Shown: positions 5,937 through 32,000 of the stretch, one piece after another
Numbering within the stretch: position 1 is the stretch's first letter
Layout: each line of letters opens with the position of its first letter
DNA from: Longivirga aurantiaca
GTDB taxonomy: Bacteria; Actinomycetota; Actinomycetes; S36-B12; CAIYMF01
Reading direction: 5' to 3'
Length of the DNA: 32,000 bases
NCBI RefSeq assembly: GCF_042660085.1
Contig: NZ_JBHSTI010000003.1
Coordinates: forward strand, 1 to 32,000
Program-made: the position numbers and the translations under genes
Notes under the pieces: model-generated
What the model was told of the DNA's origin: nothing
Seen by the model: only the letters and a program-made list of their open reading frames with translations
Database searches by the model: none

Positions 5937-6054
5937 CGTTCGCGATGAAGGCGACCGTCATCCAATAGAACCGAACAATCCCGGCCATCATCCAGCGTTC
6001 TGGATGAAGGCGACCTTCATCCAATAGAGCCGAACAATCCCGGCCATCATCAAA
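5937..6054 (+). repeat. Two tandem 59-bp copies (A1 5937-5995, A2 5996-6054) of repeat family A
   Basis: Unit: CGTTC-NN-GATGAAGG-CGA-CC(G/T)TCATCC-AATAGA(A/G)CCGAACAATCCCGGCCATCATC. A2 has a perfect 9-bp stem and 3-nt loop (6002-6022); A1 has one stem mismatch. The element is AT-richer than its surroundings and lies between the Rieske-like stop and the ADC start. Confidence 0.85.
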
Positions 6055-10651: not shown

Positions 10652-13387
10652 GTGCCCCCCAAGTCGAAGGCTGTCCGCCGTCTCGTGATCGTCGAGTCGC
10701 CGGCCAAGGCCAAGACCATCCAGGGCTACCTGGGTGACGGCTACGAGGTCGAGGCCTCGGTGGGGCACATCCGCGACCTCCCCAAGCGGGCCAGCGACAT
10801 CCCGGCCAAGTACAAGGGCGAGTCGTGGTCGCGGCTCGGCGTCGACGTCGACCACGGCTACCAGGCGCTGTACGTCGTGGACGCCGACAAGAAGACCAAG
10901 GTCGCCGAGCTGAAGAAGAAGCTCGCGGACGCCGACGAGCTCCTCCTCGCGACGGACGAGGACCGCGAGGGCGAGGCCATCGCGTGGCACCTGCTCGAGG
11001 TGCTCTCGCCGAAGGTGCCCGTGAAGCGGATGGTCTTCCACGAGATCACCAAGGACGCGATCCAGCGCGCCGCGGAGGAGACCCGCGACCTCGACCAGAA
11101 CATGGTCGACGCCCAGGAGACCCGCCGGATCCTCGACCGCCTCTATGGCTACGAGGTCTCGCCGGTCCTGTGGAAGAAGGTCATGACCGGCCTGTCCGCG
11201 GGCCGGGTGCAGTCCGTCGCCACGCGCCTCGTGGTCGACCGCGAGCGCGAGCGCATCGCGTTCCGCTCGGCGTCGTACTGGGACATCGAGGGGCTCTTCG
11301 ACCCGCAGGCGTTCACCGCCAAGCTCGTCGCGGTCGACGGCAAGCGGGTGGCGTCGGGCAAGGACTTCGACGACCGCGGCACGCTGACCCGGGCCGATGC
11401 CGCGCACCTGTCGGAGGAGGCCGCCACCTCGCTCGCGGCTGCGCTCCAGGATTCGTCGTTCGCCGTGCGCTCGGTCGAGGACAAGCCCTACAAGCGCTCG
11501 CCCGCGGCACCGTTCATGACCTCCACGCTGCAGCAGGAGGCCTCGCGCAAGCTGCGCTGGGGCGCCCAGCGCACAATGCGCGTGGCGCAGGGGCTCTACG
11601 AGCGCGGCTACATCACCTACATGCGTACCGACTCCACCACGCTGTCGGAGTCGGCCGTGCAGGCCGCGCGCCGGCAGGCGTCCGAGCTGTACGGCGCCGA
11701 CCACGTGTCGGAGGTGCCGCGCCGCTACGACCGCAAGGTGAAGAACGCGCAGGAGGCGCACGAGGCCGTGCGCCCCGCGGGCGACTCGTTCCGCACGCCG
11801 GCCGACGTCGCCGGCGAGCTGCGCGGCGACGACTTCGCGCTCTACGACCTCATCTGGAAGCGCACCGTCGCCTCGCAGATGGCCGACGCGCGCGGCCAGA
11901 CCGCCACGATCCGCCTCGGCGCCCGTGCCGCCGACGGTCGCGACGCCGAGTTCTCGGCGTCCGGCACGATCATCACGTTCCGCGGTTTCCTCGCGGCGTA
12001 CGAGGAGTCGGTCGACGACGACCGCGAGAAGGACGACGACGACGCCGAGCGCCGGCTGCCGAACGTCTCGGTCGGCGACACGATCACCGCCGTTCGGCTC
12101 GAGGCCGAGGGCCACTCGACCAACCCGCCGCCCCGCTACACCGAGGCGTCGCTGGTCAAGGCGCTCGAGGAGCGCGGCATCGGCCGCCCGTCGACGTACG
12201 CCTCGATCCTCGGCACGATCGTCGACCGCGGCTACGTCGTGAAGCGCGGGTCGGCCATGGTGCCGTCGTTCCTCGCGTTCTCGGTCGTGCGCCTCATGGA
12301 GGAGCACTTCACCCGGCTCGTCGACTACGACTTCACCGCGCGGCTCGAGGAGGTGCTCGACACGGTTGCGTCGGGCGAGACCGACCGCGTGGCCGTGCTC
12401 GACCGCTTCTACCGCGGCGACGCCGACTTCGCCGGCCTCCACCCGCTGGTGAACGACCTCGGCGAGATCGACGCGCGCGAGCTGGCGTCGTTCCCGATCG
12501 AGGGCTCGGACATCGTGCTGCGCGTCGGGCGCTACGGCCCCTACATCGAGCGCGACGGCGAGCGCGCCAACGTGCCGGCCGAGCTGGCCCCCGACGAGCT
12601 CACCGCCGAGAAGGCCGCCGAGCTCATGGCGATGCCCTCGCACGACCGCGAGCTCGGCGTCGACCCGGAGACCGGCCTCACGATCCTCGCCAAGAACGGC
12701 CGCTACGGCCCGTACGTGACCGAGGTGCTCGCCGAGGGCGCGCCCAAGTCGGCCAGGCCGCGCACGGGCTCGCTGTTCTCCGACATGTCGCTCGACACGA
12801 TCACGCTCGAGGACGCGCTGCGCCTGCTGTCGCTCCCGCGCGAGGTCGGCGCCGACCCGGCGGACGGTGTGCTGATCACGGCGCAGAACGGCCGCTACGG
12901 CCCGTACATCACCAAGGACAAGGACTCGCGCTCGCTGCCCGACGAGGCGTCGATCTTCACGATCGACCTCGACGGTGCGCTCGCGCTGCTCGCCCAGCCC
13001 AAGCAGCGTCGCGGCCAGGCCGCGGCAAAGCCCGGCATCGTGGTCGGCATCGACCCGGCGACCAACCGCGAGGTCACGCTCAAGGAGGGCCGCTTCGGCC
13101 CGTACGTGACCGACGGCGAGACCAACGCCTCGCTGCGACGCGCGGACGACCCGGCCACGATCGGCATCGAGCGCGCCGCCGACCTCCTCGCCGAGCGACG
13201 CGCCAAGGAGCCGGCGCCGAAGAAGAAGGCTGCGGCCAAGAAGACCGCCAAGAAGGCCCCGGCGAAGAAGGCGGCTGCGAAGAAGACCACCGCCAAGAAG
13301 ACGGCTGCTGCGAAGAAGATCGCAGCCACCGCCGACCCTCAGCCCCCCACCGGCGGCGGCACCACCACCACCCTCACCGTCGACTGA
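10652..13387 (+). CDS. topA: DNA topoisomerase I (type IA) with lysine/alanine-rich C-terminal tail
   Basis: AAGGAG precedes the GTG. TOPRIM 'LVIVESPAKAKTI', 'ATDEDREGEAI', the active-site region 'GYITYMRTDS', and repeated 'GRYGPY' C-terminal domains. The tail is KKKAAAKKTAKKAPAKKAAAKK, as in actinobacterial TopA. Confidence 0.97.
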   Translation: MPPKSKAVRRLVIVESPAKAKTIQGYLGDGYEVEASVGHIRDLPKRASDIPAKYKGESWSRLGVDVDHGYQALYVVDADKKTKVAELKKKLADADELLLATDEDREGEAIAWHLLEVLSPKVPVKRMVFHEITKDAIQRAAEETRDLDQNMVDAQETRRILDRLYGYEVSPVLWKKVMTGLSAGRVQSVATRLVVDRERERIAFRSASYWDIEGLFDPQAFTAKLVAVDGKRVASGKDFDDRGTLTRADAAHLSEEAATSLAAALQDSSFAVRSVEDKPYKRSPAAPFMTSTLQQEASRKLRWGAQRTMRVAQGLYERGYITYMRTDSTTLSESAVQAARRQASELYGADHVSEVPRRYDRKVKNAQEAHEAVRPAGDSFRTPADVAGELRGDDFALYDLIWKRTVASQMADARGQTATIRLGARAADGRDAEFSASGTIITFRGFLAAYEESVDDDREKDDDDAERRLPNVSVGDTITAVRLEAEGHSTNPPPRYTEASLVKALEERGIGRPSTYASILGTIVDRGYVVKRGSAMVPSFLAFSVVRLMEEHFTRLVDYDFTARLEEVLDTVASGETDRVAVLDRFYRGDADFAGLHPLVNDLGEIDARELASFPIEGSDIVLRVGRYGPYIERDGERANVPAELAPDELTAEKAAELMAMPSHDRELGVDPETGLTILAKNGRYGPYVTEVLAEGAPKSARPRTGSLFSDMSLDTITLEDALRLLSLPREVGADPADGVLITAQNGRYGPYITKDKDSRSLPDEASIFTIDLDGALALLAQPKQRRGQAAAKPGIVVGIDPATNREVTLKEGRFGPYVTDGETNASLRRADDPATIGIERAADLLAERRAKEPAPKKKAAAKKTAKKAPAKKAAAKKTTAKKTAAAKKIAATADPQPPTGGGTTTTLTVD

Positions 13388-13406: not shown

Positions 13407-13494
13407 GTCGACCCTGAGGGTCGATCACGGCAGTTGAACCGCAGTTCTCGACCCCTAGGGTCGATCTAGGCAGTTCGACTGCACGTTCTGACCC
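13407..13494 (+). repeat. Repeat family B: about two tandem units of a 37-nt nested palindrome, 20 nt after the topA stop
   Basis: GGGTCGA-tcacg-GCAGTTGAACCGC-agttc-TCGACCC (13418-13454) and GGGTCGA-tctag-GCAGTTCGACTGC-acgttc-TGACCC (13458-13494). Alternative 7-bp hairpins TCGACCC-N3-GGGTCGA lie at 13408-13424 and 13448-13464. Confidence 0.8.
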
Positions 13495-26694: not shown

Positions 26695-26816
26695 CCTGCG
26701 GTTTCGCTCCCGTTCACGGGTGCAGCGGTCGGCCGCGAACGGCGTACGGCCGATTCGGAGGCATGGCCGGGGGTCGGGTATCGTTCCGACTCGTGCTCGC
26801 CGCCTGCGGCGACCAC

Positions 26817-26893
26817 GCCGCCTTAGCTCAGTCGGTCAGAGCGACGCACTCGTAATGCGTAGGTCATCGGTTCGATTCCGATAGGCGGCTCCA
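26817..26893 (+). tRNA. tRNA-Thr (anticodon CGT), CCA encoded
   Basis: The cloverleaf can be read directly. Acceptor GCCGCCT/AGGCGGC, D arm GCTC-AGTCGGTCA-GAGC, anticodon arm ACGCA-CTCGTAA-TGCGT, T arm ATCGG-TTCGATT-CCGAT, discriminator T, then CCA. Confidence 0.95.
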
Positions 26894-26894
26894 C

Positions 26895-26927
26895 AGCGCC
26901 ACCTGCGGTGATACCGCCGGTGGCGCT
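26895..26927. terminator. Stem-loop between the tRNA 3' end and the integrase stop
   Basis: agcgccacc (26895-26903) pairs with ggtggcgct (26919-26927) and is followed by TTTC. It starts 2 nt after the tRNA CCA and ends 2 nt before the integrase stop codon (26929-26931). Confidence 0.55.
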
Positions 26928-26928
26928 T

Positions 26929-28071
26929 TCAATTGGGCTGGCTTTCCGGGTCACTCGTCCCCATCTCGTCCCCGATCATCGTGTCGAGCCTGCGAACGGC
27001 GCTGTTGAGGTGGTCGGCGGACAGCAGGTGCCCGTAGGTGTCGTGGGTGGTCCGGCTGGACTGGTGGCCGAGCAGCGACTGGACGCTCTTGAGGTCGGCG
27101 CCGGCGGCGATGAATAGCGACGCCGCCGTGTGGCGCAGGTCGTGGGGCCGGTGACCGACAGCGGTCGTCCAACCGACGGCGCGCCTCCAGTTCGACTCGC
27201 TGATCAAGCCGCCGCCGGGTGCCGAGAAGAGCGGCTCATTATGGCCCTTGCCTTCCATGCGGGCGAGCACCAGCGGCACGGCGGCGTTGGCGACGGGGAC
27301 GCTCCGGCGCCGGCGCCCCTTGGGGTACGGCTTCAGGCTGGCTTTGCCTCCGCCGTGGTCGTAGATGACGGTCCGGCTCACGTCCAGCGTCATGGTCGTC
27401 CCTCCCGTGACGGAGGTGCCGATCATGACGTCGCCGACGCGCAGCCCCGCGACCTCGCCCCAGCGAAGGCCGGTGAGGCCGAGCACCAGCGTGATGTCTG
27501 CCTGCGGGCTGCGTTCAAGCTGCTCCTGGTACAGCGCGCGGAGGGCTGTGAGCGTGAGGGGTCGTGCCCGCTGAGCCTGTTCATCTCGGCCGCGTCCGGG
27601 TGCGCGGCGGACGGTGACGTCGGAGGCGACGTTCTGGGTGATCCGGCCGTCGCGGGTGGCGAAGCTGAGCAGGGCCTTGAGCGTGGCAAGGACGCGCGTC
27701 GCCGTTGCCGGCGACAGCCGCTTGTCGCTGACCAGGGTGCGGGCGAACTCCTCGACGTCGGTGCGCCGAATGACGCCGATGGGCTTCTTGCCGAGGGTGG
27801 GCAGGATGTGGACGGCGAGTGCGCTCTGGTCGCTCTGGAAGGTTCGGCGTTCGACCTGAGGCTCGCGCACCGGCAGCCACTGCGCGGCGAGCTCGGCGAG
27901 CGTCGCCCGGCCCAGGGCGGGATCGACCCAGCCCGAGCTGTCGATGCGGGCGCGCTGCTGCCGCTCCCAGGCTTCGGCCTGGCGGCGCTGCGCGAAGGTC
28001 TGGTCGGCGACGACGCGGCCGCGGACCTTCACGCGGACGCGGTAGCGGCCCGCCTCGGTCTTGTTGATCAT
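26929..28071 (-). CDS. int: Tyrosine-type site-specific integrase
   Basis: C-terminal catalytic box 'HDLRHTAASLFIAAGADLKSVQSLLGHQSSRTTHDTYGHL' (HxxR...H...Y). N-terminal 'AGRYRVRVKVRG' arm-binding-like domain. AGGAG RBS. Convergent with and adjacent to the tRNA-Thr 3' end. Confidence 0.93.
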   Translation of the reverse strand: MINKTEAGRYRVRVKVRGRVVADQTFAQRRQAEAWERQQRARIDSSGWVDPALGRATLAELAAQWLPVREPQVERRTFQSDQSALAVHILPTLGKKPIGVIRRTDVEEFARTLVSDKRLSPATATRVLATLKALLSFATRDGRITQNVASDVTVRRAPGRGRDEQAQRARPLTLTALRALYQEQLERSPQADITLVLGLTGLRWGEVAGLRVGDVMIGTSVTGGTTMTLDVSRTVIYDHGGGKASLKPYPKGRRRRSVPVANAAVPLVLARMEGKGHNEPLFSAPGGGLISESNWRRAVGWTTAVGHRPHDLRHTAASLFIAAGADLKSVQSLLGHQSSRTTHDTYGHLLSADHLNSAVRRLDTMIGDEMGTSDPESQPN

Positions 28072-28171
28072 GGTGAGACTCCTGGAGCACGGTTTCCTCC
28101 GGTATCGCAGCCACCGCCGACAGCGGACAAGCAGTGGGCGCGCCGGCCTGTGGACGACACGCGGAGATCGC

Positions 28172-28405
28172 TCAGCGCTGGCGGTCGGCGACGCTGGGCG
28201 CAGCCTCCGTCAGCACCTCGCCGTCCAGCACCCGCCGAAGGCAGGCGGTGGGGATGCGGATGAGCTTGCCCATGCGCACGACCGGGGTGGGCCAGGCGCC
28301 GGTGCGGACAAGCTCGTAGGCCAGCCCGCGACCGATGCCCAGGACGCTTGCAGCTGTGGGGAGGTCGACGAGAGGCGGGAGCTGCGCGAGTTCGATGTGG
28401 GTCAT
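28172..28405 (-). CDS. Excisionase-family helix-turn-helix DNA-binding protein (Xis/RDF-like)
   Basis: 77 aa starting at ATG 28405, with AGGAGA 6 nt upstream. 'LVDLPTAASVLGIGRGLAYELVRTGAWPTPVVRMGKLIRIPTACLRRVL' matches the MerR-like excisionase HTH pattern. It sits directly upstream of int on the same strand. Confidence 0.8.
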   Translation of the reverse strand: MTHIELAQLPPLVDLPTAASVLGIGRGLAYELVRTGAWPTPVVRMGKLIRIPTACLRRVLDGEVLTEAAPSVADRQR

Positions 28406-28495
28406 GGGCGTCTCCTGGCGGGTGGGTGCCACCTGGCAGCGGCAGGTACCACCAGGTGCGCGTCGAGAGGCCTCGACACGCATCGGCCGCTGCCC

Positions 28496-28707
28496 GAGTC
28501 CGTCACCGAGTCCGTCACGGACTCCGTCATCAGTGGACGATGGTGCGTGACTCCGTCACCAACTCCGTCACCGACTCCGTCACGACATGGACGGTGGCGC
28601 CGGCGCTGTCATGGAGTCCGTCACCGACTCCGTCACGGCGTCAAGGGCGGTGCCGGCGCTGTCATGGAGTCCGTCACCGACTCCGTCAGTGCGTCCATGG
28701 GCTCCCG
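28496..28707 (+). repeat. Array of 12-bp direct repeats GA(C/G)TCCGTCAC(C/G) organised as four 53-bp higher-order units
   Basis: Good copies start at 28496, 28508, 28520, 28549, 28561, 28573, 28614, 28626, 28667 and 28679. Degenerate copies (ggcgctgtcatg) start at 28602 and 28655. Each unit ends with a 17-bp spacer. An inverted core copy lies at 29298-29308. Confidence 0.9.
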
Positions 28708-28822
28708 CACGTTGAGGACCCCGACTCCGGCCGCGGCATCGAGGTCGTTGCCTCGCTGTTTGATCGACGCATTCGGCTTCGCGTGTTGTCCACAGGTGGG
28801 CACGTGACGTTGACGCGGGTTC

Positions 28823-28848
28823 GTTCGCCATCGGTCACCTTGGCGAAC
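28823..28848 (+). promoter_or_regulatory. 8-bp inverted repeat immediately upstream of the RBS of ORF 28860
   Basis: gttcgcca (28823-28830) and tggcgaac (28841-28848), separated by 10 nt that contain ggtcacc. It is followed by ctGGAGG and ATG 28860. TTGACG at 28810-28815 lies upstream. Confidence 0.3.
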
Positions 28849-28859
28849 TGGAGGCCACC

Positions 28860-29222
28860 ATGGACGACGTCGACGATGCGGGAGCCCCCGCGCGGGCGGC
28901 GCTGGAGATTGCTTTGGTGGGCCTTCTGGCCGATCTGCGCCGGCACAGGCGCGACCACGTCGTGTCCCTCGGCGTCGTCGGCGCCACGGGGCGCCTGAGC
29001 GCCATCCTGCAGACTCTGAGCACGAGGACGACGGGCCACGGCGTGCGCTCCGGCGGGCCGGCCGAGCGCTTGGTGTCGGCGCGTGCCGCCGTGGCCTTCC
29101 TGGTCGACGACGCCGAAGCCTTGGGGCTGTCAGCCCACCTGCTCCTGCTGCTGGCCCGGGCGGCGCACGCTCTCTCGGAGGCCGAACGCGTGCTCCTCCC
29201 GGGCTCCTGGGAATCAAGCTGA
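28860..29222 (+). CDS. Hypothetical protein (120 aa, Ala/Leu-rich, helical)
   Basis: GGAGG lies 5 nt upstream of the ATG. The codon-position GC pattern (position 1 high, position 2 about half, position 3 highest) favours this frame over the overlapping minus-strand ORFs. I recognise no family. Confidence 0.5.
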   Translation: MDDVDDAGAPARAALEIALVGLLADLRRHRRDHVVSLGVVGATGRLSAILQTLSTRTTGHGVRSGGPAERLVSARAAVAFLVDDAEALGLSAHLLLLLARAAHALSEAERVLLPGSWESS

Positions 29223-29519
29223 CCGGCGAGTGGACCACCCGACCGCTGGCGCCGGGGTATCCAGATACCAGTGTGTGCGGCGTTCTAGGTCTTGCCCGTG
29301 ACGGAGTCGGCGGCCGTCATCGTTCGCCTTGTGGCTCGGCTCCTGACGCCCGCAAGGCGCACCGCAACTGCACGAGGGGCCAGTTGACCGCACCGCTCGA
29401 GCCGTGCCGGGTTGTGACATCTGCTGCGGCATGGTTTGGGCGCCAGAGTGCCTGCTGTGGCTGCGGAATCGGGCCGCGACGGCCGAATGCTCCTTGGAGC
29501 CAGAGGAGTGGACGCTGCC

Positions 29520-29740
29520 GATCTTGATCGTTTCACCGTGGTGGTGAGAATGGGTGGGTCACTCGGCGACGTCGTAAAGACTCTGGTGCGGCTGAGCCCG
29601 TAGAACAGTGCGGTGCGGGGTGCCCGGGTCGCCGGATTGCTGCCGTTGAGCGCGTGGGTCTGTCTCCCGTCCAGAGCTCCCTCCGGGTGGCGCCGTGGCG
29701 CCGGTGCAGTGCCGGGGCCATGAGGGTGCGGAGGCGCGTG
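29520..29740 (+). ncRNA. Putative IS110-type bridge (guide) RNA region in the left end
   Basis: Position and length match the non-coding left end of IS110-group elements. Alignment with copy 2 (31073-31276) shows conserved blocks (gatcttgatcgtt, tgagaatgg.tggg, ctcggcgacg, actctggtgc, gagcccg.agaa, cggtgcgggg, cgtgggtctgt, tccctccgggtggcg) alternating with non-conserved blocks. I did not compute a fold. Confidence 0.4.
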
Positions 29741-30829
29741 ATGGATGTCGTCTTCGATCGGGTGGCGGGGCTCGATATCGGGAAGAAGCTGGTGGTGGTG
29801 TGCGTGCGCACACCGGGGGAGCGGGGGCGGCGGGTCTCGCAGATCCGCACGTTCCGCACGATGACCCGCCACGTCGAGGTGCTGGGCGAGTGGCTGGTCG
29901 AGGAGGGTGTGCAGGTCGCGGCGATGGAGTCGACCGCCACCTACTGGAAGCCGGTGTTCTACGGCTTGGAGGACCGGGTGGAGTGCTGGCTACTCAACGC
30001 GGCTCACATGAAGGCGGTGCCGGGCCGCAAGACCGACGTGCGTGACGCGGAGTGGATCGCGCAGTTGGTCGAGCACGGGCTGGTGCGGCCCTCGTTCGTG
30101 CCTCCGCCGTCGGTGCGCCGGCGGCGGAACCTGACCCGCTACCGGGTGCAGCTGATGGGTGACCGGACCCGGCATGCGGGCAGGCTGGAGAAGCTGCTCG
30201 AGGATGCCTCGATCAAGCTGTCGTCGGTGGCCTCGAACATCACCGTGACCTCCTCGCGGGAGATGCTGGCCGCGCTGGTGGCCGGTGACCGGGACCCTTC
30301 GGTGATGGCCGACATGGCGCACTCCTCGCTGCGCCGCAAGATCCCTGACCTGACCGAGGCGCTGATCGGCCGGTTCGACGATCACCACGCGCTGCTGGTG
30401 GGGGCGATGCTGCGTGAGCTCGACCTGGTCGATGAGGCGCTGGTCCGGCTCGATGCGCAGATCGAGGCGGAGATGACGCCGTGGGCCCACGAGCTCGATC
30501 TGCTGCGCACGATCCCCGGGATCGGTCCGGTGGTGTCCCAGGCGTTCATCGCCGAGACCGGCGGGGACATGTCCCGGTTCGGGTCGCCGGAGTCGCTGGC
30601 GGCGTGGGTCGGTGTCGCACCTGCGGTGCACGAGTCCGCCGGCAAGCGCACACCCGCCGGCTCGCGGCGGGGCAACAAGTGGCTGACCGCGGCGCTGGTC
30701 GAGGGTGCGCACTCCGCAGCGCAGTCCAACGGGACCTACCTCGCCGCTCAGTACGCGCGCCTGGCCTCGCGTCGCAGCGGCAAGCGCGCTGCGGTGGCGG
30801 TCGCGCACTCCATGCTCGTCTCGGCCTAG
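29741..30829 (+). CDS. IS110-family transposase, truncated by an in-frame TAG (homologous frame continues to 30970)
   Basis: N-terminal DEDD domain (VAGLDIGKK, MESTATYWKP, KTDVRDAEWIAQL). C-terminal domain has 'IPGIGPVVSQAFIAETG' and 'HESAGKRTPAGSRRGNKWL'. After TAG 30827-30829 the same frame encodes WMLVRDEPYQDLGPDW...LERLGHTVVLDPVA*, the usual family C-terminus. Confidence 0.9.
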   Translation: MDVVFDRVAGLDIGKKLVVVCVRTPGERGRRVSQIRTFRTMTRHVEVLGEWLVEEGVQVAAMESTATYWKPVFYGLEDRVECWLLNAAHMKAVPGRKTDVRDAEWIAQLVEHGLVRPSFVPPPSVRRRRNLTRYRVQLMGDRTRHAGRLEKLLEDASIKLSSVASNITVTSSREMLAALVAGDRDPSVMADMAHSSLRRKIPDLTEALIGRFDDHHALLVGAMLRELDLVDEALVRLDAQIEAEMTPWAHELDLLRTIPGIGPVVSQAFIAETGGDMSRFGSPESLAAWVGVAPAVHESAGKRTPAGSRRGNKWLTAALVEGAHSAAQSNGTYLAAQYARLASRRSGKRAAVAVAHSMLVSA

Positions 30830-31072
30830 TGGATGCTGGTCCGTGACGAGCCCTACCAGGACCTCGGCCCTGACTGGTTGTCCAAGCGCAACGACCAGGC
30901 GCACACCCGACGCCTGGTCGCGCAGCTCGAGCGGCTCGGCCACACCGTCGTCCTGGACCCCGTCGCCTAACACCTACGACCGCCGGAAACCGTTCCGGGC
31001 CAGTTCATCCGGGCTGCGCCCGGATGCTGTCGCGCCCTGGTGCACTTCATTCTCGGGTCAGTCCGCGCTGGC

Positions 31073-32000
31073 GATCTTGATCGTTGGGTTGTGGGGATGA
31101 GAATGGTGGGGCCGCTCGGCGACGCCCTTTCACTCTGGTGCCGGAGAGCCCGAAGAAGAGTCCGGTGCGGGGACCTCGGGTGTGTCGAAGTTGTTGCTGC
31201 GAGCACGTGGGTCTGTATCCATGGCAGAGGTCCCTCCGGGTGGCGTCTCGTTCGCTGATGGTCGGGGGTGGTCGTGATGGATGTGTTGTTCGGCCGGGTT
31301 GCCGGGATCGATGTCGGCAAGGCGACGGTGACGGTGTGCGTGCGGACACCGGGCACCGGTCGTCGGAAACGCGGATGTTCGGCGACGATGACCAGGTCGC
31401 TGGTGGTGATGGCGGACTGGCTCGAGGAGTGCGGTGTGACGCTGATGGCGATGGAGTCGACCGCGACGTACTGGAAGCCGACCTTCTACTGTCTCGAGGA
31501 AGGGATGGAGTGCTGGCTGCTCAACGCCGCGTATATGAAGGCGGTCCCCGGCCGCAAGACCGATGTGCGTGATGCGGAGTGGATCGCTCAGCTCCTGGAA
31601 CACGGGCTGGTGAGTCCGTCGTTCGTGCCGCAGCCGGAGGTCCGCACCTTGCGGAACCTGACGCCGTACCGGCTCCAGCTGATGGGGGATCGGACCCGGG
31701 CCGCGGGTCGGTTGGAGAAGCTGCTCGAGGCGCCTCGATCAAGCTGTCGGTGGTCGCGTCGAACATCACCGCGACGTCGTCGCGGGAGATGCTCGCTGCG
31801 CTGGTGGCCGGCGAGCGGGACGCGGCGGTGATGGCCGACCTCGCGCACTCACGCTGCGGCGCAAGATCCCGATCTGACCGATGCGTTGACCGGGCGCTTC
31901 GACGATCACCACGCGGCGATCGTCGGGCAGCGGCAACCAAACTGGAGCAGACCGAGACCGGACTTCGGGGCATCGACGCCGAGCTCGAGATCCGGATGGT
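31073..32000 (+). mobile_element. IS110-family insertion sequence, copy 2 (diverged; runs off the window)
   Basis: It starts with the same gatcttgatcgtt and directly follows copy 1 head-to-tail. Its left end and transposase are homologous to copy 1. Confidence 0.75.
31277..32000 (+). pseudogene. IS110-family transposase pseudogene (multiple indels)
   Basis: It aligns with copy 1 (MDVLFGRVAGIDVGK..MESTATYWKP..KTDVRDAEWIAQL). There is a 1-nt deletion at about 31731 (gaggcgcctcgatc versus gaggatgcctcgatc in copy 1). Further indels downstream break the frame repeatedly. Confidence 0.85.

Follow-up and report, generated by a model that had tools for sequence, protein, structure and literature searches.

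The window considered here, i.e., the whole stretch from position 1 to 32,000 of contig NZ_JBHSTI010000003.1 of Longivirga aurantiaca, carries next to a tRNA-Thr gene an integrated island in which a phased array of 12-bp direct repeats lies between the gene for a small Xis-like protein and ORF120, an open reading frame (ORF) for a 120-aa protein. The array is non-coding in the window and, as far as sequence comparison tells, is conserved as a DNA motif in related islands, where it probably constitutes a docking platform on double-stranded DNA for a sequence-specific protein. Short phased repeat arrays are the means by which mobile elements recruit proteins for excision, maintenance, and transfer. 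It is unusual that in the present case an 11-base motif and a lattice of five helical turns are kept across exchanged integrases, target tRNAs, excisionase types, and relaxase clades, that the array survives in relaxase-less derivatives together with a core resembling an origin of transfer (oriT), and that it is tolerated in frame in relaxase genes, in which synonymous sites are frozen. The identity of the binder and the effect of binding are matters on which we can only infer, and among the candidates discussed below we tentatively prefer a protein of the excisionase fold.

Structure of the Repeat Array

The array (28496-28707, + strand) consists of four 53-bp units starting at 28496, 28549, 28602, and 28655, each made up of two to three head-to-tail 12-mers of the type GA(C/G)TCCGTCAC(C/G) and a 17-bp spacer. 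A pattern search of the window with GASTCCGTCAC, which allowed at most one mismatch and used 100 shuffled sequences as control, finds ten copies on the same strand (at 28496, 28508, 28520, 28549, 28561, 28573, 28614, 28626, 28667, and 28679) and one exact inverted copy of the 11-mer at 29298-29308. Together with two degenerate copies (GGCGCTGTCATG) at 28602 and 28655, the same-strand copies make up a series of four 53-bp units. The whole window contains 15 matches, compared to 3.6 ± 1.8 in the shuffled sequences, none of which (0/100) reached 15. With Tandem Repeats Finder, a period of 53 bp is detected at 28564-28695 (2.5 copies, 88% matches, score 201), and periods of 12 bp are detected at 28494-28529 and at 28550-28583. 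The original prediction, made from the bare sequence, had listed ten copies plus two degenerate ones, four 53-bp units, and the inverted copy at 29298, and this description is confirmed. It had also named the flanking genes correctly, a helix-turn-helix (HTH) gene at 28172-28405 (-) and ORF120 at 28860-29222 (+). The gap between xis and ORF120 that holds the array measures 454 bp, and the array begins 91 bp upstream of xis.

The window array is non-coding. Over 28420-28780, the codon-position (third-position) GC signal that is present in int, xis, and ORF120 is absent. In locus L063, which is 92% identical and free of insertion sequences (IS), the array is 65 bp (53 + 12) shorter and has three units compared to four in the window, and due to this indel no reading frame through the array is conserved. 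The earlier claim that the array yields no believable protein therefore agrees with both lines of evidence, and the window array, having neither a coding signature nor a frame kept relative to L063, is not to be labelled as a coding DSVT/ESVT-type low-complexity repeat. A role as single-stranded DNA structure is not supported, as the array folds no better than its shuffles (z = -0.32) and a conserved non-coding region (NCR) beyond ORF120 folds worse than its shuffles (z = +1.63). The only terminator-like hairpin, at 28740-28755, is not kept in relatives. The window as a whole is G+C-rich actinobacterial DNA, and G+C content is 64-70% across the neighborhood of the array, without any AT-rich stretch. 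BLAST searches of 28100-29500 against plasmid and phage collections give no match. A description of the motif or of the element family is absent from these collections and from Rfam, and our literature searching was aimed at comparator systems, not at the motif.

Conservation of the Motif and Its Lattice

In order to see how far the motif spreads, a dimer of the 12-mer was searched in 596 Gb of sequence comprising one genome per species. The dimer is rare. It occurs in 62 places. About 16 of these 62 places belong to the present element family or to metagenome-assembled genomes (MAGs) carrying it. Such MAGs are few and actinobacterial (Candidatus Nanopelagicales and relatives), and the matches fall on about four contigs in each genome. 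JAIUOK, JBFWNE, CAWJMG, and CAXWMM are among the genomes with the array. Another 16 matches, from actinobacteria outside the family, were inspected and are coding low-complexity repeats of the SVTESVTE or GDGLGDGL type in unrelated proteins; the inspection stopped at these, the remaining 30 or so coming from Myxococcales and others. A scan of viral contigs with the motif dimer gives a single match, situated at a contig end. Further loci were collected via homologues of ORF120, by exact-protein look-ups, and by a metagenome scan with an Xis alignment, and the conservation counts given here refer to 15 sampled loci, corresponding to about eight distinct related ones.

The gene order of the window, i.e., Int - Xis - array - ORF120 - inverted 12-mer - NCR, is found in at least five further lineages (L042/L090, L011/L091, L006/L089, L092, and L056). 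Compared to the window, their Xis proteins are 57-75% and their ORF120 proteins 73-86% identical, the integrases of window-type lineages are about 26-30% identical, and the targets are tRNA-Ser(CGA) or tRNA-Thr. Longivirga aurantiaca encodes homologues of both flanking proteins.

In the 124 units counted over 15 arrays, T3, C4, and G6 never vary, G0, A1, C5, T7, C8, and A9 are at least 96% identical, and position 2 is either C or G. Distances from copy to copy cluster at 12, 41, 53, 65, 106, and 159 bp. The lattice of 53/106/159 bp persists across different integrases (26-29% identical) and target tRNAs (Thr, Ser), and both the spacer sequence and the number of units (two to six) differ among loci. 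A motif that stays constant within diverging surroundings and on different backbones argues for selection by a common sequence-specific reader. The array is rightly regarded as a genuine, helically phased cis-element belonging to the island, as had been proposed from the window alone, and its 53-bp lattice is kept in related islands.

Arrays in Other Gene Contexts

In seven loci (L009, L029, L032, L081, L086, L002, and L012), copies of the array lie within ORFs for TrwC relaxase-helicases, where they occupy the linker that joins the TrwC domain to the AAA_30 helicase domain, with Xis and Int encoded downstream of the relaxase. These embedded copies are translated in frame as D/E-S-V-T repeats of a disordered linker, and the relaxases that have the array in their linker or directly upstream belong to four clades with a mutual identity of only 31-51%. 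In 22 of 22 linker copies, serine is encoded by TCC (background 31%) and valine by GTC (background 57%), and such substitutions as are found change the amino acid (D to N or E, T to A). In L012, the embedded array is in reverse orientation, and embedded clusters are spaced by 75 bp, corresponding to 25 codons or about seven helical turns. Frozen serine and valine codons, non-synonymous changes, the reversed array of L012, and the 75-bp spacing together indicate that the constraint acts on DNA, even inside ORFs. The original prediction had set a conserved coding sequence running through the array against its own reading of a cis-element; such a coding sequence does exist in the relaxase-bearing relatives, but the codon evidence points to selection at the DNA level there, and the window copy is non-coding. 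The embedded arrays are situated at 930-1110 in L009, at 5350-5450 in L029, at 2010-2125 in L032, and at 505-627 in L012, and also in L081 and L086.

Other arrays are intergenic. In L022, the array takes up the divergent region that immediately precedes the relaxase gene and an HTH_17 gene. In L005, L034, L076, and L053, it lies downstream of ORF127, in the intergenic region between the genes for p460 (460 aa) and p382 (382 aa), a position that is held at 46-51% protein identity. In L049 and L015, the array is present without ORF120. The genes ORF127 - p460 - p382 form a conserved set of three (L005 2241-5311, L034 260-3330, L076, and L053), and ORF127, a distant relative of ORF120, heads an ORF127-p460-p382 operon in L005 and L034. 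Searches of Pfam, NCBIfam, PHROGs, and PADLOC give no matches for p460, p382, and ORF127 and none for the UPF0158 protein encoded in the same elements (see below) beyond Pfam UPF0158 itself; p460, p382, and UPF0158 have no matches among PDB sequences either.

A Family of Mobilizable Elements With a Candidate oriT

Full-length relatives, for example L029, have the order UPF0158 - TrwC relaxase - HTH_17 - Int - tRNA. In the window lineage, ORF120 occupies the slot of the relaxase, and UPF0158 follows the NCR in the IS-free L063. Next to different integrases, a UPF0158-family gene flanks the oriT-like core or the relaxase (L063 10757-11446, L011 2515-3312, L049 2569-3303, and L029 6924-7610) and, from this distribution, seems to belong to the element family.

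The NCR (29240-29530) has a mean column identity of 67% with long invariant blocks in an alignment of seven loci and is also present in L015 and L049, both of which are without ORF120. It carries the inverted 12-mer (29298-29308) and a degenerate partner (GGCGGCCGTCAT, 29310-29321). Close to its end lies the 21-mer GCTCCTTGGAGCCAGAGGAGT (29489-29509, - strand), which is identical or has one mismatch in every NCR-bearing locus, and homology between lineages ends about 20 bp past it. The reverse complement of the 21-mer contains the core GACTCCTCTGGCTC, and a core GACTC(C/G)TCTGGCTC is located 90-110 bp upstream of the start codons of TrwC relaxases in L002, L012, and L086. We consider GACTCCTCTGGCTC as a candidate oriT or nic region. 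In the relaxase-bearing loci, the core maps to 1948-1968 (L002), to about 2002-2014 (L012), and to 1042-1054 (L086), and its first six bases (GACTCC) are shared with the 12-mer.

The orientation of the array relative to the oriT-like core or relaxase is variable, being antiparallel in the window type and in L012 and parallel in L049, L086, and L002. Besides xis, window-type and relaxase-bearing elements have no DNA in common other than the array. The most fitting description of the window island is that of a relaxase-less derivative within a family of small, tRNA-integrating mobilizable elements of uncultivated actinobacteria that use TrwC relaxases.

Candidate Readers of the Array

Compared with known systems, the array shares only part of the defining features of operators of recombination directionality factors (RDFs) and of relaxosome accessory arrays, and it lacks those of iterons, centromeres, clt loci, and MtrA sites. 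Our tentative preference, which we would not call probable, is that a protein of the excisionase fold, working in cis or in trans, nucleates on it and would control the divergent xis-int and ORF120 promoters and, via the copy in the NCR, excision. Two or three 12-bp units in head-to-tail order, with the invariant core GA-S-TCCGTCA, make up the basic site. A 12-bp step rotates successive sites by about 50 degrees, which limits clusters to two or three units, and the restart after 53 bp, i.e., five turns of 10.6 bp, realigns the clusters on one helical face. Such a geometry would suit a filament that forms cooperatively or a protein core with DNA wrapped around it. The reader might be the Xis-like protein, which is encoded at a distance of 91 bp, or a corresponding protein provided in trans by another element in the cell. 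This reader would multimerise on the clusters, their occupancy would set transcription from the divergent xis-int and ORF120 promoters, and occupancy together with the isolated inverted copy near the far end could make excision dependent on the state of sibling elements that share the cell. Proteins of this fold class are known to form multimers on direct repeats: RdfS binds attP and its own promoter and oligomerises (PMC11963761), the sites of RDFs typically are direct repeats at a distance of one helical turn (PMC7498355), and BldC forms cooperative multimers on direct repeats (PMC5859096). If the neighboring Xis is the reader, RDF nucleation would take place on a site of unusual size, which could serve for the study of filament-forming winged-helix proteins.

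In three contexts (window, L022, and L049), the start of the array lies 90-140 bp upstream of an HTH_17 gene, and the inverted copy with its degenerate partner (29298-29321) lies about 210-230 bp from the apparent right end of the element at 29530. Genomes holding L049 encode window-type Xis proteins on other elements; in JAIUOK there are three such proteins alongside L049. As in the RDF arrays of lambda (Xis, X1-X1.5-X2), P2 (Cox boxes), 186 (Apl), ICEMlSym (RdfS), and mycobacteriophages (Xis), a small gene of the excisionase fold adjoins int, head-to-tail repeats in clusters of two to three are located upstream of the RDF gene, and an extra copy is found towards the far end of the element. 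In contrast to these systems, the present array combines a 12-bp period with a 53-bp super-period, and its 10-12 sites are far more than known RDF sites comprise. Moreover, the motif is uncoupled from the Xis family, occurring beside unrelated HTH_17 genes and also in relaxase ORFs, and is missing at the tRNA-side attachment site.

A number of observations weigh against an excisionase-fold reader. Xis homologues that are 64-77% identical and possess the same recognition helix GIGRxLAYxLVR occur in loci with only background matches to the 12-mer (L077, L082, L085, L087, and L093 (10 kb)), and in L005/L075 the Xis-ORF127 intergenic region, i.e., the xis promoter region, is free of the motif. Conversely, the same 11-mer is found beside three very different HTH_17 types (L049, L022, and L029), with integrases that are about 25% identical. 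A distance of about 2.4 kb separates xis from the array in L009, L029, L032, L081, and L086, where the array lies within the relaxase gene, and in L005, L034, and L053 it lies between p460 and p382, away from the xis promoter. In the window, the pattern search finds no 12-mer near the tRNA-side attachment site, a sigma-70 promoter scan detects no promoter, and the period of 12 bp differs from the 10-11 bp that are usual for RDF sites. The expected co-variation of the array with the HTH protein or with the 120-aa protein is not observed, Xis occurring without the motif and the array without ORF120. Of the proposal that the array is an operator of its flanking genes, the part that stands is a real phased cis-element of the island; it is not private to these genes, since ORF120 is often absent, Xis is found without the motif, and other HTH_17 types accompany it. 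The conflicting evidence on Xis could be reconciled if sibling elements provided a window-type Xis in trans, and a factor encoded by a helper or by the host accounts for the same facts equally well.

The two other proteins of the window element are unlikely readers. For the integrase, binding to arm-type sites was considered and rejected, as at least three unrelated N-terminal arm domains accompany the motif and the array lies 0.8-1.6 kb from either element end. ORF120 is absent from L015, L049, L009, L022, and L029, and its model, a four-helix bundle, has no DNA-binding fold.

In a more general version, which we regard as possible although somewhat doubtful, the array would be a portable DNA address tag of co-resident integrative elements that works in intergenic position or in frame in the TrwC linker and in either orientation, and a single reader acting in trans would synchronise or hijack excision and transfer. 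With a shared reader, the array would be the mark of a network of small mobilizable elements in little-studied actinobacteria of soil and freshwater and would provide a sequence tag for finding its members. If the address-tag reading is true, one would have a helper-satellite network in uncultivated actinobacteria and a clear case of a cis-acting DNA element constraining the synonymous sites of a relaxase gene. As Longivirga aurantiaca is a named species with an NCBI genome record and possibly culturable, experiments may be feasible.

Alternative Explanations

Among the alternatives to an excisionase-fold reader, a transfer-associated recruitment array survives best. The 12-mers would be read by an accessory protein of a helper, by a coupling-protein adaptor, or by a host protein, which would bring the excised element or its relaxosome to the transfer machinery, and the window element would be a hitch-hiker consisting of oriT plus array. 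Given that the island is a relaxase-less member of a TrwC-relaxase mobilizable family, a role in transfer is as plausible as that of a Xis/Cox-type operator, although we would place it among the possible explanations and not among the probable ones. The array travels with TrwC relaxases of four clades, in their linker or directly upstream, and relaxase-less derivatives (window type, L049, and L015) retain exactly two non-coding parts, the array and the NCR ending in GACTCCTCTGGCTC. The same motif is combined with different Int, HTH, and relaxase proteins on about four elements per genome, which fits one shared reader in trans. Its position and orientation are free, and it is optional within the family (L093 is without it), as expected for a match to a particular helper. 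On the other hand, genes for TraM, StbA, TraB, or a coupling protein are not seen in any of the fetched loci, the helper is hypothetical, the assignment of the core as oriT is itself tentative, the array is 0.3-1.5 kb from the oriT-like core and so beyond the distance between sbm sites and nic, and the window is without a relaxase.

Conceivable analogues are TraM with sbmA-C of F-like plasmids, StbA with stbDR of R388, and TraB with clt of Streptomyces plasmids. With the sbmA/B/C sites of F and pED208 and with stbDR, the array shares the association with a TrwC/MOBF relaxase and a candidate oriT core (relatives L002, L009, L012, L022, L029, L032, L081, and L086). TraM of pED208 reads GANTC motifs that are paired at 12 bp, on underwound DNA (PMC3159463), and here the motif starts with GA(C/G)TC and has a period of 12 bp. 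StbA acts in trans on the cis-acting stbDR, two sets of five 9-bp repeats beside the oriT of R388 (PMC3098194), and here, too, multiple short repeats are found. In contrast to both systems, no TraM or StbA homologue is found, the repeats are direct and not inverted-symmetric, and 11 bases are conserved instead of five. Also, the hosts are actinobacteria, the carriers are integrated mobilizable elements and not plasmids, and the array can sit in the coding sequence of the relaxase.

The clt loci, or TraB recognition sequences (TRS), of Streptomyces conjugative plasmids and of actinomycete integrative and conjugative elements (AICEs) reportedly consist of co-oriented short repeats with 8-bp units, are needed only in cis, and can overlap a coding region. 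Actinobacterial hosts, a co-oriented cluster of repeats in cis, and the overlap with coding sequence are likenesses to the present array, and a site specified by a helper would let gene-poor elements be mobilised. However, the unit here is 12 bp with other sequence and spacing, the relaxases are of the TrwC type, implying single-strand transfer, and an FtsK-like TraB gene is not found in the related loci annotated.

Readers or functions other than those listed, among them a role at the RNA level, taken together have a small chance of being the right answer.

A maintenance site of the excised circle, i.e., replication iterons or a centromere-like site for tethering or partition (parC, tubC, or stbDR type), seems improbable to us. 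parC of R1 and tubC of pBtoxis are centromeres of 11-12-bp repeats, and a winged-helix protein binds the 12-bp unit of tubC. Phased blocks of short direct repeats that nucleate protein filaments are the classical anatomy of iterons and plasmid centromeres, position independence would fit a centromere, and a DnaA-box-like T(T/C)GTCCACA is found 80 bp from the array in all window-type loci. However, neither the window island nor the related loci annotated encode Rep, ParA, ParM/ParR, TubZ/TubR, or a centromere-binding operon; for the window, the original prediction had already remarked on the lack of Rep, ParA, and TubZ, and a domain search agrees, leaving iteron and centromere readings without their defining partner genes. 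An A+T-rich unwinding region is absent, GC being 64-70% throughout, and DnaA boxes are no more numerous than expected by chance. The element is chromosomally integrated, many family members are without the array, and identical iterons or centromeres on about four co-resident elements would cause incompatibility.

Still less credit is due to the idea that the array has no present function, being a self-propagating minisatellite or a relic of a DSVT-encoding relaxase linker after deletion of the relaxase. Relaxase-bearing relatives do carry the repeats in frame as D/E-S-V-T peptides, L049 resembles a relaxase deletion with the array retained, and unit number differs between close relatives (four in the window, three in L063). 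Yet neutral decay would be expected, and the 11-mer is near-invariant with diverged spacers and flanking proteins that are 26-80% identical. Separate arrays cannot be kept on a common consensus by concerted evolution within any one of them, the ORFs have frozen synonymous sites, and arrays are also intergenic, upstream of the L022 relaxase and of p382 (46% divergence of p382 in L053). As to the window array as a relaxase pseudogene, tblastn with three relaxases matches only the repeat itself, and no remnants are found in the flanks.

An operator for a conserved host regulator such as MtrA, a response regulator of the OmpR/PhoB type, which would link island genes to host physiology, is the least probable explanation: invariance of the motif over unrelated element backbones suggests a conserved reader, and the reverse strand, GTGACG-N6-GTGACG, resembles the MtrA consensus of two GTGAC-type 6-bp direct repeats 5 nt apart (PMC5650626; a related motif is GTCACAgcg, cited in PMC2945938), but this resemblance is a literature lead in which the half-site is similar and the period is 12 bp instead of 11, conservation extends over 11 bases and not over a 6-bp half-site, 10-15 sites are far above known regulator operators, and the 26 kb of host sequence within the window shows no enrichment of the motif.

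The Island and Its Surroundings

The integration target is a tRNA-Thr(CGT) gene (26817-26893, +; ARAGORN; Rfam tRNA, 73 bits), the 3' 46 nt of which (26848-26893) behave as attachment-site repeat. In L064 (1-3250), only the sequence corresponding to window positions 26848-26934 is present to the left of int, and genes for Fic and Lsr2 are found further left; apparently, another island has integrated in tandem at this tRNA, with the 3' 46 nt of the tRNA as junction.

The gene for a tyrosine integrase of 380 aa (26929-28071, -) has the third-position GC signal, and its product matches Pfam Phage_integrase (2.1e-14) with Phage_int_M and SAM-like domains. It is followed by the gene for the Xis-like winged-helix protein with excisionase fold (77 aa; 28172-28405, -), which matches HTH_17 and TIGR01764, both below cut-off. 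An AlphaFold2 (AF2) model of Xis has a predicted local distance difference test score (pLDDT) of 83.6, the best PDB folds are the excisionase RdfS (8dgl), P2 Cox (4lhf), Pukovnik Xis (4j2n), and BldC (6ama), and database names of its homologues are excisionase or AlpA. Between xis and the array, a control region (28406-28495) contains two small palindromes, CACCTGG..CCAGGTG and GTCGAG-AGGCCT-CTCGAC, the latter at 28460-28481; this region is kept in loci with the same type of integrase and not in L042 or L011.

On the other side of the array, the region upstream of ORF120 (28708-28859, +) is highly conserved in an alignment of seven loci and contains the DnaA-box-like 9-mer TTGTCCACA. This 9-mer at 28786-28794, between array and ORF120, equals the actinobacterial DnaA-box consensus exactly, relatives having T(T/C)GTCCACA; it is the sole exact copy in the window. 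ORF120 itself (28860-29222, +) is predicted to encode a four-helix bundle. Codon-position GC favors the + strand, there are 22 homologues and no Pfam match, and the AF2 model (pLDDT 80.6) has no PDB match better than E 0.5 and neither a ribbon-helix-helix (RHH) nor an HTH fold.

For the NCR, a plus-strand consensus RNA fold has -70 kcal/mol, but its covariation term is positive, so that covariation speaks only weakly for it, and the fold is supported mostly by a single divergent sequence. An Rfam scan of 26700-32000 detects the tRNA only, and the NCR is without match.

Homology of the window to the uninterrupted L063 ends at 29530, from where two insertions of the IS110 family follow in tandem. 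The first (29531-31059, +) encodes a transposase at 29654-30829 (Pfam DEDD_Tnp_IS110 and Transposase_20). The second (31060-32000, +; Pfam DEDD_Tnp_IS110) runs off the window, its ORF is broken after 187 aa, and it is supported by direct repeats D1, D3, and D5-D8 and by 91% identity to the IS copy of L002. The two copies of the window have diverged, being about 77-87% identical. IS110-family copies are found at one point, about 20 bp past the 21-mer GCTCCTTGGAGCCAGAGGAGT, in four independent loci (window, L002, L006, and L042), and the sequence just within the IS (CGCTGNCGATCTTGATCG) resembles the uninterrupted target flank in L063 (CGCGCCGATGATCTTGAACG). This coincidence suggests that the target of IS110 is site-specific here. 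A right-hand attachment-site repeat of the tRNA 3' end of at least 12 nt is not found in the window, L063, L064, and 13 other loci, so that the right boundary of the element rests solely on where homology ends.

Outside the island, further repeats are present in the window. At 5937-6051, in an intergenic stretch of lower GC, a 59-bp unit occurs 1.9 times with 92% matches, and each copy includes a palindrome GGATGAAGGCGACC(G/T)TCATCC, which looks like an operator. Repeats of the type AAGAAGGCCGCGGCC with a period of 15-45 are located at 13201-13319 and would give a stretch rich in Lys and Ala if coding. Finally, two copies of a 40-bp unit at 13408-13494 each contain a hairpin TCGACCC-NNN-GGGTCGA and are possibly terminators or an element of the repetitive extragenic palindromic (REP) type.

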